The notes: generated by a model not told the origin, from the sequence alone. Shown: positions 1,005 through 13,673, counted from the first letter of the stretch. The stretch: 64,000 nt of DNA from a bacterium (GCA_963662285.2 CAXXMV010000002.1:64001-128000), one strand, 5' to 3'. A program made the numbers and translations.

Positions 1005-1488
1005 GAATGAACGCATAACAACCGCTTTCCCAATCAGATCGTACCCTTATCGAGTTTACTACGCCGATACCGACGCAGGGGGCGTAGTTTATTATGCTCA
1101 ATATCTTCGCATGTTTGAACAGACGCGTACCCTTTATTTAGAGGATTGTGGAATTTCTCTTACAGAATTAGCTGATATTAACTGTTTATTCGTCTGCCGA
1201 CGGGCTGAAGTCGACTATATTTCCTCCGCTAAATTGGGCGACCACTTGGATATTGAGACTAAAATATCAGAGTTGGGGAAGACGCATGTCACTTTCTCTT
1301 ATACAATCACTTGTCCGATGAGGAAGAATCAAGATGGCGCCGCGACGCTTATTGCTGAGGGAATCACTAAACTGGTCTCAATCAGAGAAAAAGAGGGGCA
1401 TGTACGGCCTATCCGCATCCCCAAGACTGTTTTAGACGCTTTATCAACTAACAAGTCCCCTCTCCCCGTTGGTGTACAGACCGGGTAG
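1003..1488 (+). CDS. YbgC/FadM family acyl-CoA thioesterase (hot-dog fold)
   Basis: RVYYADTDAGGVVYYAQYLRMFEQTR signature. The last codons are supplied by a REP palindrome and the IS end. Confidence 0.9.
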   Translation: MNERITTAFPIRSYPYRVYYADTDAGGVVYYAQYLRMFEQTRTLYLEDCGISLTELADINCLFVCRRAEVDYISSAKLGDHLDIETKISELGKTHVTFSYTITCPMRKNQDGAATLIAEGITKLVSIREKEGHVRPIRIPKTVLDALSTNKSPLPVGVQTG

Positions 1489-1561
1489 ATGGGTAACACA
1501 TGTTCGGGGACATGGGTTACAGTTTTTTATCAAAACCGGGATTTATCCCAGGTTATTGTTT

Positions 1562-1720
1562 GAGTTTTTTTTTAGGCATCTAGAGATGCTCAGGATAATT
1601 GGTTGGCTTAGAGGGAGGAGGTGAATATTTCACCTCCTGCATTATCCCTCGCACCTCGGATCGGCTATCCCTGGCGGGTTGCACTCCTGCAGCGCCCGCT
1701 TCCGTTTCGCCCAACCAATT
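1562..1720. ncRNA. Putative structured non-coding module in the 3' region of IS481-A
   Basis: Nested stems (AATTGGTTGG/CCAACCAATT; AGGAGGTGAA/TTCACCTCCT) and a 43-nt core homologous to 13302-13345, with compensatory changes. Confidence 0.55.
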
Positions 1721-1721
1721 T

Positions 1722-2888
1722 CTATTGTGACGCCTTTTTCTGGATTGCCAAGTTATCTTCTTTGATTTCATTCAAACGCAGATCGAGCGTCTTGATTTTT
1801 TGTCGGCAAAAATATACGTCCATCATCCCATCGGTCATAGCGGGTTTCAAGGCAACCGGGCATCCTACCAGGGCGCGGCTCACCCGGTAATCTTCACCAC
1901 GGTACGCCACCCGACCTCCTTGTTGCACCTTCCTGATAATGCTGCCCGGCGCGTACTCGATATCCGGCAAACTTCCCGGATAAACAAAAGGACTGGACGT
2001 ATAATGGTTAGCCGGGACATCCATATCCAGGGCTTCGTGAGGACGCTCAAAATTGTATTCATAACGCCACTCATCAAACCGCCTTTGGCAATATTCCAAA
2101 TCCACAAACGATTCCCTTATCAGCAATTCTTGCTTAAAGGTCCGGTGAAATCGCTCGACCTTGCCTTGGGTTTGCGGATGGTAGGGGCGACCGTGATACA
2201 CGCGAATACCCAATCGTATCAGCCATATTGTCAATCTGGTGTATTCGCAGGTTTTGCATCCTCCCCACGGACTTCCGTTATCCATCAACATCGCCCGAGG
2301 CATACCATACATCCTGAACACGCTTTCCAGGGAGTCTTGCACGGTTTCCCTTTGCTGATTGGCGCACGAAAATAATCCGGGAACAAAGCGCGTGCAATCA
2401 TCCAGAATGCTGAGCGGATAACAGCGTGCTTTGAGCGTGGGAAAATCTCCTTTGAAATCCATTTGCCACAATTCGTTGGGCGTATCTTTTTCAAAACGCT
2501 TATAGGCTTTGTGCTTGTGACTTTCCTTTTCATCCAGCAATCCCAGTCGGCGTAACACGGCAGTAATAGTGCTGGCGCTAGGAACATTTTCGTATCCCAA
2601 TTGAATCAGACGAGAGCGAATTTTGCGTCCTCCCCATCCTTTTTCGCGATTTTCTGTAATGGCTTGCTCGATAGACTTATCTGTTTGATGAGGGCAAGTA
2701 TTGGGTTTTTTGGAACGGTCTTGGAGATTTTCGACTCCTCCTTCTTTGTACCGTTTGATCCATTTGTAACCCGTCTTACGGCTGATATCAAACCGTTTAC
2801 ATAATTGGCTGATGTTGCTTTCTTCTTGCTGGCTCAACAATACGAATTCTTTTCTCAGAGACATAAGGTCCACCTCGTTCCAGGGCAT
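1722..2888 (-). CDS. IS481-family DDE transposase
   Basis: N-terminal HTH (ISRKTGYKWIKRY), WQMDFKG, LMDNGSPW, HPQTQGKVERFHRT and NFERPHEAL. Confidence 0.95.
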   Translation of the reverse strand: MPWNEVDLMSLRKEFVLLSQQEESNISQLCKRFDISRKTGYKWIKRYKEGGVENLQDRSKKPNTCPHQTDKSIEQAITENREKGWGGRKIRSRLIQLGYENVPSASTITAVLRRLGLLDEKESHKHKAYKRFEKDTPNELWQMDFKGDFPTLKARCYPLSILDDCTRFVPGLFSCANQQRETVQDSLESVFRMYGMPRAMLMDNGSPWGGCKTCEYTRLTIWLIRLGIRVYHGRPYHPQTQGKVERFHRTFKQELLIRESFVDLEYCQRRFDEWRYEYNFERPHEALDMDVPANHYTSSPFVYPGSLPDIEYAPGSIIRKVQQGGRVAYRGEDYRVSRALVGCPVALKPAMTDGMMDVYFCRQKIKTLDLRLNEIKEDNLAIQKKASQ

Positions 2889-3072
2889 ATTCTTCGCCTC
2901 CTTTCAAGGCTAGAATACACTCAGAAAATGTGTTACCTATGTCCCCGAACACCTGTTACCCATGTCCCAGGCCTTTACAGTTGGGAGAGGGTTAGGGTGA
3001 GGGGTAAAATTAAACCACTTCAGACAAAACGAATTGGTCATACTACTAGAGCGTTAATAAGCATAGACCTTC

Positions 3073-5424
3073 ATGAAGGTCTATGTAAAAATATCTTTTG
3101 GTGAAATGATGCGTAAATCAATCGAATTTCTACTATTTCTGTTTATCCTGGCATCCACGGTATGGGCGCAAAACCCGCCTGTTGCAAGTGAGAATAATAT
3201 TCCGGTCGACATTATCGGGGGCGAGTTATCTTTTGATAATGAAACGCAGAATATGCACTCGAAATCAAACGCCAATGGCGACCCTACCGTCATCTTCGAG
3301 ATGCAGTCTATTACCGCCCATCATATTCATTACAACCAGGCGTCTAAAATCATTTACGCCACTGGCGCGGTCCGTTTATGGGATGAAGGAAATATTCTGC
3401 GCGGCGACTATCTGGAATTTTACATTGACAGCAAAGAAGGCGTCCTGCAAAATCTGAAATCATCCGAAATTCTTGACGGCGTCTATTTTGCCGGAGAAAC
3501 CCTGGTTTTAGGACACCGGCCAGCCAAAGTTATTAAAGACGCCACACAACCGGAGATGGTCAGGGAATTTACCCTTTTCAACGGTACAGTCACGCCAAAC
3601 GACCTTCCCGTTCCTCATTACCACATTAAATACAATAAGATCGTTTTCGCTCCCAAAGTTAGAGCCACTATAACAAATATGTTTTTCCATGTCGGCGATT
3701 GGCCGATTGCCTACGCTCCGGTCTTCTCCAGATCACTGGCCGATCATGAACTAACCTATTTTATCGACGTCGATAGTTATTCCGACCTGGGCGTGGCATT
3801 CATGAACCGTTTGTTATGGAAACCCAATGACCAATGGGAACTAAACCTCTATGGCGATTACTTCACCAAAGCGGGCATCGGCAAAGGCGCCAAAGTGGAA
3901 ATGGACATCCCCGGTCAATATGGCCCCAAAGGTATGATCTACGCCAATCATATTAAGCAGGAAGAACCCGACAATGACCGCATTTACGATGGCGCGGATC
4001 GCTATAACCTGGCTTTGGAATACCAGCAGGACCTGCCCTACGATATGCGCTTATCCGCTAAAGGCCATCGCATCTCCGACTCAGAATACCGCTGGGATTA
4101 TCGCGGCCCGGAATCAGCCCATAGAATTGATTTAATTGAGATGCAGGAAGATTCGGTTTCACATGTTAATCTAACCAAATTGTGGGATGATCAAAGTCTG
4201 CGGGCGACCTTCGCCTCGCGGCTTGATCCCTTCTACTACAACGGCCTGCCCTTTATCGAACGGAAGCCGCAAATTCATTTTGAGCAATATCCATATTCAA
4301 TCTATGATTCTAATATTTTCGCCGATTTCCGGCTGGATTATGGAAGATACCGCCGCGAAGAAGGCGTAACGTTCCCCTTAGATGTAAGAAACCTCTACAG
4401 CCGGACCACTTTTTATGACGAGGTAGACCGGCTGGACGCCGAACTGCGCGTCTCTTATCCGATTCATCTTCCCGAACGCTTTACCCTGCAACCCTGGGTA
4501 GGCTATCGCGGAACCAATTACTCCGACCCCATGCGCGCTGAAGGAACTCCCTTCACAGAGTATAACTTCGACGACGAAACCCGCCTGATGCTTGAGGGAG
4601 GCGTTGATCTATCCACCCGCACCGTTTATGAGTTCAAACCATTTTTGGATAAATACGCTAAAATGCGCGCCGTCGTGGAACCTATCTTGCAATATGGATA
4701 TTATCACCCCGACACAGACTTGGAAGAAATCACAACCGGAACCAATATCCGCTTTCCATATATCGATCCGGTTGACGAATTCCGCTTCAAGATGCACCGT
4801 TTCTCAGCTATGGTGCGCACCAAAATTCAAGGCAAAACCGCTGAAGGATTTACCAGCGATTTCATGCGTCTATCAGCAGGAGCGGTATACGACATAATCC
4901 CCGACGAAAACCTGCGCTATGATAGTTTTGAATTGTTCGACGATTTCGCCAATCATGATGATTATAGATTTTCCGACCTGGTCGAAGATTTCAGCATCTA
5001 CCCGTTTGACTGGCTCACCTTCGGCAATTCGCTGCAATTCGATATCGAAGACAGCCAGTTGCGCTCTTCATACACTTACACCACAGTTCAACCGATTGAT
5101 CCGGTTCATGTAACTACCGGATACCTGACCTACAAACATCCACTGCTGGATAACGAAGAGCAGCGCGACGTCACGCTTAATGTAAACTGGAAATTATCCA
5201 ACAAGTGGCAAGCCTATTACACCAGCTGGTATGATATTGATGATGAAGTTTTCCGCAGAAACCATGTCGGCCTGGTGCGGGACATGTACGACTTCTACGG
5301 CATTATCCAGGTAGGCCAGCGCAGACACCCCACCCTGGGAACCGATTTCAAAATATCCTTCGGCCTACAATTCTGGGGCATCAACAAAGGACAAACCCAG
5401 GAAGCCCCGACTCTGTTCTATTAG
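3073..5424 (+). CDS. lptD: LPS-assembly protein LptD-like outer-membrane beta-barrel
   Basis: Signal peptide, OstA-like N-terminal beta-jellyroll (IYATGAVRL..LRGDYLEF), PIAYAPVF motif and aromatic-rich beta strands. True start probably slightly downstream (MMRKS). Confidence 0.75.
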   Translation: MKVYVKISFGEMMRKSIEFLLFLFILASTVWAQNPPVASENNIPVDIIGGELSFDNETQNMHSKSNANGDPTVIFEMQSITAHHIHYNQASKIIYATGAVRLWDEGNILRGDYLEFYIDSKEGVLQNLKSSEILDGVYFAGETLVLGHRPAKVIKDATQPEMVREFTLFNGTVTPNDLPVPHYHIKYNKIVFAPKVRATITNMFFHVGDWPIAYAPVFSRSLADHELTYFIDVDSYSDLGVAFMNRLLWKPNDQWELNLYGDYFTKAGIGKGAKVEMDIPGQYGPKGMIYANHIKQEEPDNDRIYDGADRYNLALEYQQDLPYDMRLSAKGHRISDSEYRWDYRGPESAHRIDLIEMQEDSVSHVNLTKLWDDQSLRATFASRLDPFYYNGLPFIERKPQIHFEQYPYSIYDSNIFADFRLDYGRYRREEGVTFPLDVRNLYSRTTFYDEVDRLDAELRVSYPIHLPERFTLQPWVGYRGTNYSDPMRAEGTPFTEYNFDDETRLMLEGGVDLSTRTVYEFKPFLDKYAKMRAVVEPILQYGYYHPDTDLEEITTGTNIRFPYIDPVDEFRFKMHRFSAMVRTKIQGKTAEGFTSDFMRLSAGAVYDIIPDENLRYDSFELFDDFANHDDYRFSDLVEDFSIYPFDWLTFGNSLQFDIEDSQLRSSYTYTTVQPIDPVHVTTGYLTYKHPLLDNEEQRDVTLNVNWKLSNKWQAYYTSWYDIDDEVFRRNHVGLVRDMYDFYGIIQVGQRRHPTLGTDFKISFGLQFWGINKGQTQEAPTLFY

Positions 5425-11676: not shown

Positions 11677-11831
11677 AAAAATATCTTGTAATTGTTCAGC
11701 CTATTATTCCTCCCCCAAGCCTGGGGGAGGTTAGGTGTGTATGAACCGGGCACATCCTTTACAGAATAAACCGGGCACATGGTTTACACAAGTCGATACT
11801 AAGAACCGACCAGAAGAAAGGAGTCGGTTCG

Positions 11832-13043
11832 ATGACTTGGAAGGAAAACAGTGCCATGGATGCAAGAATGAAATTTATTGCGGATGTCCTCCGCAAAGAA
11901 GACACACTAAGCGCCTTATGCCAAGCATATGGCATTAGTAGACCAACCGGATATAAATGGATCAAGCGCTATCAGGAAGACGGTCCTGGTGGATTGGAGG
12001 AGCGATCCCGGGCGCCCCATACCCAAGCACTAGCCGTTTCTAAAGAGACCGAAAAAGAAGTGAAGGCTATGCGAAAAAAGTTTCCGCACTACGGTCCTAA
12101 AAAATTACGGGTGGAACTGAAAAAAAAGGATGCGACGAAGCACTGGCCGGCAATCAGTACGATTGGCGAGATACTAAAACGCAAAAATCTGATTGTCAGC
12201 CGCAAGCAAAAAGATCGCGCCAAACCAAGTGGTGAAGCGTTAACCGAATTCGACCAAGTGAACCGCGTATGGTGCGCGGATTTCAAAGGAGATTTTCTAA
12301 CGGGAGACGAACATCGATGTTTCCCTTTAACCGTATCGGAAGGGGCTAGCCGCTATTTACTCTGCTGCCAAGGCATGCAAGAAACCAATGGCGCATTGGT
12401 ACGCGTAATTTTCGAGCAGATTTTTCGCGAGTATGGTTTACCAGAAGTCATTCGAACGGATAACGGGGCGCCCTTTGCGTCGACCGGAATCGGAGGGTTA
12501 ACCAAATTATCCGTGTGGTGGATAAAACTGAGAATTTATCCAGAACGAATCCAGCCGGGTCGGCCTCAACAAAATGGCCGTCATGAGCGAATTCACCGGA
12601 CCTTGAAAGCAGAGGCCATTTCTCCACCAGCGCCAACGCTGCGTGAACAACAAAAACGTTTTGATCAATTTCAAAAAGTGTACAACGAAGAGCGGCCTCA
12701 TGAGAGTTTGGGACAACGACCTCCCGCGCAGTTGTATCAACCCTCGCCGCGCGTCTATTCAGGTAAAGCGCCGAATTGGGAGTATCCAGAGACCATGCAG
12801 GTGCGCCAAGTGAAAACCCATGGTGAAATCAGTTGGCGAAGCAAGCATTGGTATTTGGGGGAAGCTTTGGGAGGTGAATTGGTGGGACTAGAGGAATTGG
12901 AATAGAATAATTGGCGCATTAGTTTGGGTAACGTGATTCTCGGTTGGTTGAATATGTCAAAAGGTGAGGTGGTGCGTGAATTGTCTTTGAGACGCATCAA
13001 TCATCCAAAAGCAATCAGTCACCCGGCAGTATGTCCCAGGTAA
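11832..13043 (+). pseudogene. IS481-family transposase with in-frame TAG at 12903-12905
   Basis: WCADFKG, IRTDNGAPF and QQNGRHERIHRTLK. The frame continues after the TAG as NNWRISLGNVILGWLN... to TAA at 13043. Confidence 0.75.
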
Positions 13044-13168
13044 AAAATGAGCTAGGGAAGTATCAAGATGATGAATAATTCAGGTATTAATTTTCCTGAG
13101 ATTGAATCCAGATCGTCTCTTTTTCGAGAAAATCAAAGAGCGCACGGGTGAAAAAAAAGGTGGCAATA

Positions 13169-13365
13169 TCGGGGGCGCCGCCCCCGTACCCCCGGAGTTT
13201 TTTTAGGCATTAGCACAAACTCCAGATAGTATGCAAAAAAAAGCAAAGGGACGGTTCTAAATCCGTCCCTTTAGCGACTATCCGTCGCCCGTGCACCAGG
13301 ATATCCCTTGACAGGTTGCTCTCCAGCAGAGCCTGTCTCCGTTTCTCCTGGTGATAATAACTATC
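13169..13365. ncRNA. Putative structured non-coding module in the 3' region of IS481-B
   Basis: Stems GGAGTTT/AAACTCC, GATAGT/ACTATC, AAAGGGACGG/CCGTCCCTTT and CACCAGGA/TCCTGGTG. Core 13302-13345 is homologous to 1666-1708. Confidence 0.55.
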
Positions 13366-13673
13366 GGATAGCTCGAAATAATCTGTAGAAAAAGAAGTAA
13401 AAAAACAGTTCTAGCAAGTAAGCAATTCAGAATACGTTGATATACCTGAAAACGGATTATCTCTTTAAAAAAACAGATAAGTTGCCATAATTTGCGAGAC
13501 AAAAGTGTAAACCATGTGCCCGGTCTAAAGTGTAAACTATGTGCCCGGTCATTCAGGTGGGGGTTGATCCGTCAAAGCGCAACCCCTCTCTAACTCCCCC
13601 CAAACTTGGGAGGAGAATTTGAGTCTTAATATTATTAAGCAAGCATGTTTTTGTATCTTACCAGCCAACAGCC

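Follow-up and report, generated by a model that had tools for sequence, protein, structure and literature searches.

The window analysed here, a stretch of 64,000 nucleotides of bacterial DNA (GCA_963662285.2, CAXXMV010000002.1:64001-128000), contains two divergent insertion sequences (ISs) of the IS481 family, hereafter IS-A and IS-B. An earlier note on this DNA had pointed out that both carry a similar non-coding module beside their transposase genes (positions 1562-1720 for the copy in IS-A) and had proposed that it acts as an RNA or as a single-stranded DNA (ssDNA) structure. This raises the question of what the module is, which of its strands is the functional one and whether it belongs to IS481 elements at all. 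Two kinds of RNA encoded by ISs, the bridge RNAs of IS110 and the omega RNAs of IS200/605, have recently been shown to be functional machines, and the large DDE transposase families IS3, IS481, IS21 and IS256 are not known to have any functional RNA. The two window copies belong to one structurally conserved element, which is apparently undescribed so far and whose functional strand is probably the one opposite to that folded in the note. As to its nature, we give an even chance to the reading that it is a self-contained small-RNA gene of ~120-190 nt, carried as a portable cassette that may lie either way round, with conserved purine-rich loops to which a conserved partner binds.

Structure and covariation of the module

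The two core strings that had drawn attention to the module lie where they were placed, at window positions 1666-1708 and 13302-13345. Compared by eye, they differ by eight substitutions, six of which form three compensatory pairs as had been noticed, two in the helix GGCGGG/CCCGC versus GACAGG/CCTGT and one in TGCA/TGCA versus TGCT/AGCA; the cores also differ by one indel. With its three stems (P1-P3), the core of copy A spans 1655..1722 and that of copy B 13291..13358, both read on the minus strand. The layout around the cores is common to both copies and consists of a box GAG(T)nAGGCAT, a GATA-type outer stem, a strong hairpin and then the core. Read on the minus strand, the core of copy A runs GAAACGGAAG-P2-P3(GGAG loop)-AGGGAUA. 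Its closing stem is short (GGC/GCC), and a longer stem (1598-1608 with 1709-1720) encloses core and hairpin. The variable strong hairpin of copy A (~1614-1638, minus strand) lies inside the stem GGATAAT/ATTATCC, formed by 1593-1599 with 1641-1647, so that this part of the module occupies 1593..1647. By eye, an equivalent of the enclosing stem, changed on both sides, is present in IS-B and at other loci. The box of copy A, GAG(T)9AGGCAT, is found at 1562..1579 and reads AUGCCU(A)9CUC on the minus strand. In copy B, P1 is formed by CACCAGGA/TCCTGGTG (13294-13301 with 13346-13353), the GATA-type outer stem by 13224-13230 with 13276-13283, and the box in the sequence is GAG(T)7AGGCAT (13195..13210).

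The likeness of the copies goes well beyond what chance would give. A covariance model built from four genomic variants of the module found it in 21 of 101 related genomes; among these 21 are 13 of the 19 genomes from the same family and two that are related only at the domain level. Among the 32 model-aligned matches, 86.2% of the cells pair as opposed to 71.9% in column shuffles, double changes occur at 15 of 19 pairs, and the covariation score is 0.36 against 0.14 after shuffling and 0.05-0.09 with the partners slid; this alignment was fitted to the covariance model. An independent treatment with MAFFT and RNAalifold of 29 IS256-type and 29 other sequences gave the same P1-P3 in both sets, with compensated pairs at 10 of 17 and 13 of 16 positions, respectively. 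Over the wider set of homologues (32 model-retrieved copies, ~100 distinct sequences overall) P1-P3 covary strongly, and P1 occurs in many unrelated versions among the ~100 distinct copies. Related copies are not independent, and p-values are indicative only. One part of the earlier note's interpretation, a conserved, covarying and structured module carried by IS elements, is supported.

While the stems change, ~25 unpaired nucleotides are kept across phyla together with a fixed bulge and tetraloop. In the 32 model-retrieved copies the loops are mostly, not absolutely, conserved, and their sequence is near-constant although the ends of the elements differ. A further 80 loci (L096-L175) were retrieved by a pattern that fixed ATCCC, GTTGCnCTCC and CCGTTT and left the stems free. 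A short hairpin after P1, provisionally called P4, is tentative: its best stem measures 5.07 bp against 4.47 bp in shuffles, and stems reaching 5 bp or more are found in 59% against 44%. By eye, two alternative pairings are open to the segment that follows the core, a local one and one with a distant stretch lying past the hairpin.

The functional strand and a candidate small RNA

Below, R denotes the reverse complement of the strand folded in the earlier note, that is the minus strand in the window. At variable pairs the originally folded strand has 103 A.C against 49 G.U combinations, and these A.C combinations become G.U pairs on R. The excess is found in all four larger context classes (16/8, 31/21, 35/17 and 18/2), which include both orientations relative to the transposase gene (tnp). 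The folding energy of R is also lower in 61 of 77 distinct full modules, with a mean difference of 5.5 kcal/mol (Wilcoxon p=6e-9). Taken with the promoter motifs described next, these biases mean that the plus strand was probably wrongly taken as the functional one and that R is probably the functional strand.

Promoter-like motifs precede the module on R. In the Bacteroidota copies carried by a Zn-binding variant of the IS256 family (IS256-Zn), 10 of 26 distinct upstream windows contain an exact TAnnTTTG, nine times at one position, compared with 20 of 520 random windows. By manual count, 18 of 27 windows have TTTG at that position, and 11 of 27 have another TTTG ~20 nt farther up; we take these motifs to be the -7 and -33 elements of the Bacteroidota promoter consensus. 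At the other loci a -35/-10 pair, defined by at least 8 of 12 matches and a -10 element ending 12-22 nt before the loop, was found in 21 of 61 cases versus 3 of 61 at the equivalent place on the other reading, with 8.9% in shuffles. Copy A has the promoter-like site TTGGCA-16-CACAAT (1724..1751, minus strand; 9 of 12 matches, in a region with three sites against 0.4 expected). It lies inside the 3' end of the IS-A transposase gene (tnp-A), and the predicted start at ~1717 falls on the first bases of the module's closing stem; sites placed in this way recur at other loci. The site before copy B, TCTACA-18-GATAGT (13360..13389, minus strand), is weak, with a score of 8 of 12, and is not called by a stricter scan; its -10-like hexamer stands at the same distance from P1 as at most other loci.

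Signals resembling terminators lie at the other end. Just after the box of copy A and just inside the end of IS-A there is a terminator-like hairpin with a T-run (1536..1551, minus strand), a putative RNA 3' end. In copy B the strong hairpin at 13244-13273 is followed by U8 at 13235-13242, which together (13235..13273) look like a terminator for a minus-strand RNA. A plausible candidate RNA from copy A would therefore extend from ~1717 to ~1530 (~185 nt) and include the box, and a plausible one from copy B from ~13353 to ~13235 (~119 nt), ending before the box. A U-run after the variable hairpin is present on R in IS-B and in most IS256-Zn copies; it is missing in IS-A and, by eye, in most other copies. 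The core itself has no U-run. Whether it is turned with or against the transposase gene, the cassette retains signals of its own. In the RepL plasmid L205 and in a microvirus, where R lies in tandem behind a gene, no TAnnTTTG-type motif was seen by eye before P1, which fits co-transcription in these two non-IS carriers.

If the module is a small-RNA gene, R would be read from the strand opposite to the one first considered, from a promoter whose end is ~5-7 nt ahead of P1, the closing stem. This RNA would fold into P1, an internal loop (5'-GAAACGGA / AGGGAUA-3'), P2, a 2-nt bulge and P3 capped by GGAG, followed by the short hairpin and then by the variable strong hairpin, which in many copies would act with its U-run as terminator. 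In other copies, such as that of IS-A, the RNA would extend across the conserved A-rich box and stop at a terminator that adjoins the end of the IS. R converges on tnp in IS-B, IS256-Zn, IS3 and IS21 and lies in tandem behind it in IS481 elements of the IS-A type; the idea of a tail in the sense of the transposase transcript consequently does not hold for IS-B. The promoter and terminator motifs suggest that R is transcribed. Since the loops, the 2-nt bulge and the GGAG are near-constant while the stems change, the purine-rich loops are presumably recognised by a partner conserved across phyla, which could be a host protein, an RNA or a small molecule. R presumably benefits its carrier, and the most plausible way would be an adjustment of transposase expression or of the copy-out step.

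Carriers and distribution

A pattern scan of one genome per species returned at least 108 stretches, of which 80 were listed; the fixed pattern biases the census of carriers. The listed matches come from many Bacteroidota and from Acidobacteriota, Planctomycetota, Verrucomicrobiota, Chlorobiales, Cloacimonadota, Nitrospira, Armatimonadota, Zetaproteobacteria, Spirochaetota, Sumerlaeota, Lentisphaerota and others, more than ten phyla overall. Together with the 32 model-retrieved copies they make up 112 loci, and in 71 of these a transposase gene adjoins the module (tblastn with clusters of flanking open reading frames (ORFs), the clusters being assigned by Pfam). The Zn-binding IS256 variant (NF048019) accounts for 31 loci, with the transposase always on the same strand as the motif of the earlier note. 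Transposases of the rve type (IS481/IS3) adjoin it at 20 loci on that strand and at 15 on the opposite one, and IS21 IstA/IstB at five loci, four on the same and one on the opposite strand. In IS481, IS3, IS21, IS256-Zn and IS110 elements the cassette is positioned between the transposase stop codon and the element end. At 82 of the 112 loci, 70-123 nt separate the 16-nt box from the core.

Many of the 41 loci without a typed transposase are truncated contigs. Twenty of their flanking proteins were scanned with Pfam, and two belonged to the IS110 family (L171, opposite strand; L079, same strand). One locus (L098) showed an arrangement of rve, AAA_22 and AAA_25 with a transposon-like look; the remaining proteins mostly belong to ordinary host-gene families, and five had no Pfam match. 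Among the loci examined, an IS110 gene adjoins the module only at L171, at L079 and at one locus on an Acidisarcina plasmid. The core also occurs in replicons that are not ISs. In two small RepL plasmids of Tunicatimonas pelagia it is found just behind repL, with R on the repL sense strand, and in two closely related microviruses it lies at the 3' end of the coding sequence that flanks the largest non-coding region; R is on the coding strand there, and P1, P2, bulge and P3 are all retained. The module is thus not the IS481 feature it was taken for, as the same cassette is shared by IS256-Zn, IS3, IS21, IS110, RepL plasmids and microviruses. That one structured cassette has been exchanged among DDE families and kept in more than ten phyla points to a function general enough to be carried along.

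Searches elsewhere delimit this distribution. E. coli genomes gave no match to the module, 2.9 million viral contigs gave none to the canonical or to a looser pattern, and an IS256-Zn-type module (L100) gave none among plasmids. Cultured carriers are Oligosphaera ethanolica DSM 24202 (L125), Tunicatimonas pelagia NBRC 107804 with its plasmids, and Acidisarcina polymorpha SBC82 with plasmid pACPOL3. With these carriers, a length of ~120-190 nt and predicted ends, the cassette is a clean, testable object.

In the window, IS-A is a complete element of 1507 bp (1473..2979, minus strand) with TGTA...TACA ends and a 5-bp target duplication, as defined by comparing 18 genomic copies. Its transposase ORF of 388 amino acids (1722..2888, minus strand) was assigned to IS481 by Pfam and NCBIfam. 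IS-B is a second, different element of ~1.8 kb (11738..13555, plus strand) with five genomic copies and a transposase ORF at 11832..12905 (plus strand). Both transposases have been rightly attributed to the IS481 family (Pfam rve and LZ_Tnp_IS481; NCBIfam NF033577), and each element encodes its one transposase and nothing else. Because tnp-A is on the minus strand and the IS-B transposase gene (tnp-B) on the plus strand, the orientation of the module relative to the transposase is opposite in the two elements. The ORF of tnp-B is shortened here by a change of GAG to TAG at 12903-12905, which costs the encoded protein its last ~46 residues; two of the five genomic copies have TAG and three have GAG, and in these three the frame stays open up to the position that corresponds to 13043. 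In the genome there are 18 identical IS-A modules and five IS-B modules, besides two diverged single copies; an IS21 istB gene immediately precedes one of the latter.

Some further observations concern the individual elements. IS-B sits in the right end of one IS-A copy (L016, G000:C1:604786-607956), so that the two elements are nested there. Most of the 18 IS-A copies are inserted, with a 5-bp duplication, in the loop of a GC-rich palindrome CCCTCTCCC-N5-GGGAGAGGG (window 1460-1475 and 2977-3000; L001-L018), and IS-B copies also adjoin palindromes (CCTCCCCC...GGGGGAGG). This suggests that the genome contains repeats like repetitive extragenic palindromes (REPs) and that an IS481 element targets hairpin loops. 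In the RepL plasmid L205 the box follows directly on the stop codon of the upstream gene, as if it were part of the gene end and not of the core. The microviruses come from rodent faeces (L206, PQ006214.1, 2983-3040; L207, PQ006462.1); in both, the core runs over the final ~15 codons of a hypothetical protein, stop codon included, and is followed by a hairpin with a T-run and then by a non-coding region of ~410 nt. An exact 20-mer of the P2/P3 hairpin, GGCTCTGCTGGAGAGCAACC, occurs without the flanking loops in three IMG/VR contigs (L209, 10435-10454; L210, 1545-1564; L211, 3235-3254) and may be a reusable hairpin module or due to chance. In a metagenome-assembled genome of Terriglobia (L116), an ORF of 397 amino acids near the module (4124-5314) has Cys-rich motifs and no Pfam match; its stretch LHAHAVYVG resembles, by eye, the motif of HUH rolling-circle initiators. 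Group II intron domains (Rfam RF02003 and RF00029) lie a few kb from the module at L127 (5532-5675) and L140 (5404-5556) and are probably unrelated mobile DNA.

Alternative explanations and relation to known systems

Several points weigh against the small-RNA gene. Transcription of R is predicted from sequence motifs, and structured RNA and structured ssDNA are not reliably separable from sequence; PMC5737381 makes this point from a motif first regarded as RNA that proved to be integron attC. The pair beside the bulge is U.G on the strand folded first in 98 of 99 sequences and would be A.C on R (the U was fixed by the search pattern, the G was not). In IS-A both strands fold equally well (z -4.0 and -4.1). 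The constancy of the loops in L096-L175 is partly by construction, since the search pattern fixed those bases. An RNA reading does not account for the conserved box, which in a few loci (L114, L161, L174 and L205, 2585-2600) lies on the other side of the core and is inverted. Finally, all identified carriers are thought to pass through circular or single-stranded replicative forms, which a DNA priming site predicts and an RNA of general benefit does not.

This last point leads to the main alternative, which we consider possible, if unlikely, and in which R acts as DNA. The displaced R strand would fold and recruit primase or RNA polymerase, by which a single-stranded circle would be made double-stranded, and in ISs that move by copy-out-paste-in it would serve the copied-out strand. 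Such a strand-specific priming site for the complementary (lagging) strand, or single-strand origin, would be common to copy-out-paste-in ISs, rolling-circle plasmids and an ssDNA phage. The range of carriers agrees with it: IS256-Zn (31 loci), rve-type IS481/IS3 (35), IS21 (five) and IS110 are types for which circular or single-stranded replicative intermediates have been reported, and no carrier of the IS4, IS5, IS982, IS630, IS200/605 or Tn3 type was found among the 71 typed loci and the 20 scanned proteins. As these carriers represent few independent acquisitions, the pattern is weak statistics. The position of R on the repL sense strand in the two plasmids, and, in the two microviruses, on the coding strand beside their largest non-coding region, is in line with such a site as well; the coding strand of microviruses is presumably the packaged one. 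The strand bias fits folded ssDNA as well as RNA. However, a priming site has no need of host-appropriate double-strand promoter motifs, which stand at a fixed distance before P1 on the strand of the fold and would drive an R-sense RNA. The cassette moreover occurs in both orientations within IS481 and within IS110, and in IS carriers R is mostly opposite to the tnp strand. A useful origin of ssDNA phages should also be commoner in viral contigs than the absence of the canonical pattern from all 2.9 million allows. If true, a priming site would explain second-strand synthesis on the copied-out single strand of the IS circle, and it would be the first replication-origin-like module in DDE insertion sequences, exchangeable between IS families. 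Whether as such a DNA signal or as an RNA that binds a host factor or ligand, the module would represent an untouched control layer of the commonest transposons.

Rather improbable, in our view, is a riboswitch-like sensor in which P1-P3 would be the aptamer for a universal metabolite or ion and the hairpin with the U-run the expression platform, so that read-through, antisense into the 3' end of the transposase gene or, in the tandem type, outward from the IS, would couple transposition to the state of the cell. The order of promoter, P1-closed conserved core and variable terminator-like hairpin would suit such a sensor, as would the alternative pairing seen by eye after the core, and conserved loops with covarying stems across more than ten phyla are indeed found, as in aptamers. 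Yet no coding gene follows the module on either strand in IS, plasmid or virus contexts and it does not lie in any 5' untranslated region, the U-run is absent by eye from most non-Bacteroidota copies, the switch helix is no general feature either, the local hairpin has the weak support given above for P4, and the gene context points to no ligand.

The interpretation originally offered, a plus-strand, IS481-specific RNA or ssDNA in the tail of the transposase transcript that serves targeting, regulation or self-cleavage, is in our opinion very doubtful. Besides the U.G pair and the equal folding of the IS-A strands, it can draw on the motif strand being the sense strand of tnp in IS-B, IS256-Zn, IS3 and IS21. 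The element is not confined to IS481, however, the motif strand is antisense to tnp in IS-A, and the plus strand shows more A.C than G.U in every larger class, folds worse in 61 of 77 modules and has promoter-like sites in only 3 of 61 loci at the equivalent place. In 5 of 75 loci a GC hairpin together with the T-run of the box would stop plus-strand transcripts before the module. A role in targeting like that of the IS110/IS605 guide RNAs is unlikely because the unpaired loops keep the same sequence across elements with different ends and targets. Least probable of all is an ordinary element without a dedicated product, be it a complex bidirectional terminator or insulator or a selfish repeat of the REP or miniature inverted-repeat transposable element (MITE) kind: the A-/U-run-flanked variable hairpin of IS256-Zn does resemble a bidirectional terminator between convergent units and solo copies beside ordinary genes exist, but terminators and REP-like repeats do not keep ~25 unpaired nucleotides, a bulge and a tetraloop across phyla while their stems change, and 23 of the 25 genomic copies (18 and 5, with only two solo) lie inside complete IS elements, so that the module does not multiply on its own, while the solo copies examined are relics, as they retain IS-end sequences.

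Some narrower ideas were tried and rejected. Trans-antisense control of the transposase start was examined in 40 elements: duplex energies were -39.5 kcal/mol for cognate and -38.2 kcal/mol for non-cognate combinations, with the control strand alike, local alignment scores were 13.6 and 13.75, respectively, and the cognate element ranked in the top three in 4 of 40 cases. Neither strand thus has cognate complementarity to the transposase start region, and the matches seen by eye there for IS-A and IS-B are Shine-Dalgarno-like chance. A small ORF starting from the ATG of the box on the reverse strand varies in frame with the length of the A-run and is immediately followed by stop codons. The A(N)GGA motifs of a possible CsrA sponge are, by eye, not kept in Bacteroidota copies. 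A guide-like match between the variable hairpin and the palindromic target of IS-A seems to amount to low-complexity resemblance.

Comparison with known systems begins with Rfam, in line with a check recommended from the outset. No Rfam 15 family matches the module: a scan of 20 loci (130 kb) at gathering thresholds returned only a tRNA and two group II intron matches elsewhere in the loci, and E-value scans of both window copies and seven more loci gave nothing below E=0.4 and no weak match on the core. Group II intron domain V gave a single weak match (E=0.56, with 18.7 bits where the threshold is 53 bits), which falls outside the core, on the variable hairpin of IS-A. Domain V is a hairpin of 34 nt that has an AGC triad, a bulge of 2 nt and a loop of the GNRA type and lies inside an intron; the core has a CUCC/GGAG loop and no intron context. 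Full-text searches of the literature on IS-borne non-coding RNAs and single-strand origins did not turn up a description of the module. A preprint that maps prokaryotic non-coding motifs (10.64898/2026.10.21.760802) mentions transposases, in its accessible part, only for IS110 bridge RNAs, and its supplementary files could hold relevant motif lists. Among IS110-type systems, the DEDD recombinase that goes with bridge RNAs is not present at the window copies, whose carriers are IS481 DDE elements, and no tnpB or iscB, the partners of omega RNA and reRNA, was found with Pfam among 27 flanking proteins scanned.

IS10 RNA-OUT and the 5'tnpA and art200 RNAs of IS200 are regulatory small RNAs encoded by ISs (see also bioRxiv 10.1101/2024.06.26.600842). 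They resemble the small RNA proposed here in being short, in arising within an IS from their own promoter or by processing, and in presumably regulating the element or its host. Unlike the cassette, they overlap the 5' end of one transposase mRNA and belong to one IS each; the cassette lies at the 3' side, in either orientation, with at least five unrelated transposase families and in two other replicon types, and has no cognate complementarity to the transposase start. Likeness to the IS110 bridge RNA and the IS200/605 omega RNA or reRNA (PMC11208158) lies in a structured non-coding RNA within the non-coding end of an IS, with internal loops between covarying stems. The loops of guide RNAs are programmable and vary with target and ends, in contrast to those of the cassette, which stay the same. 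Its partners are also mostly DDE transposases, with an IS110 gene adjoining at only three of the loci examined.

Single-strand origins are known from rolling-circle plasmids (sso) and as complementary-strand origins from the phages G4, phiX174 and M13. They share with the module a strand-specific fold, conserved unpaired bases and a home in small replicons, and in RepL plasmids and microviruses the module is on the strand expected to be single-stranded, as they are. They differ from it in that promoter motifs precede the module, that both orientations occur within one IS family and that it is nearly absent from viral contigs. HEARO, before it was recognised as omega RNA, GOLLD and ROOL are orphan structured RNAs of mobile elements. 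Like them, the module was found by covariation and is linked to mobile DNA; it matches none of their Rfam models. The 'Transposase-resistance' motif that turned out to be integron attC (PMC5737381) posed the same question of RNA versus ssDNA; the module lies neither next to an integrase gene nor in cassette arrays.

The module resembles the IS-borne regulatory small RNAs only in general kind, and it lacks the features of bridge RNAs, omega RNAs and MITEs. What makes it unusual among these systems is its exchange among at least five transposase families and two other types of replicon.

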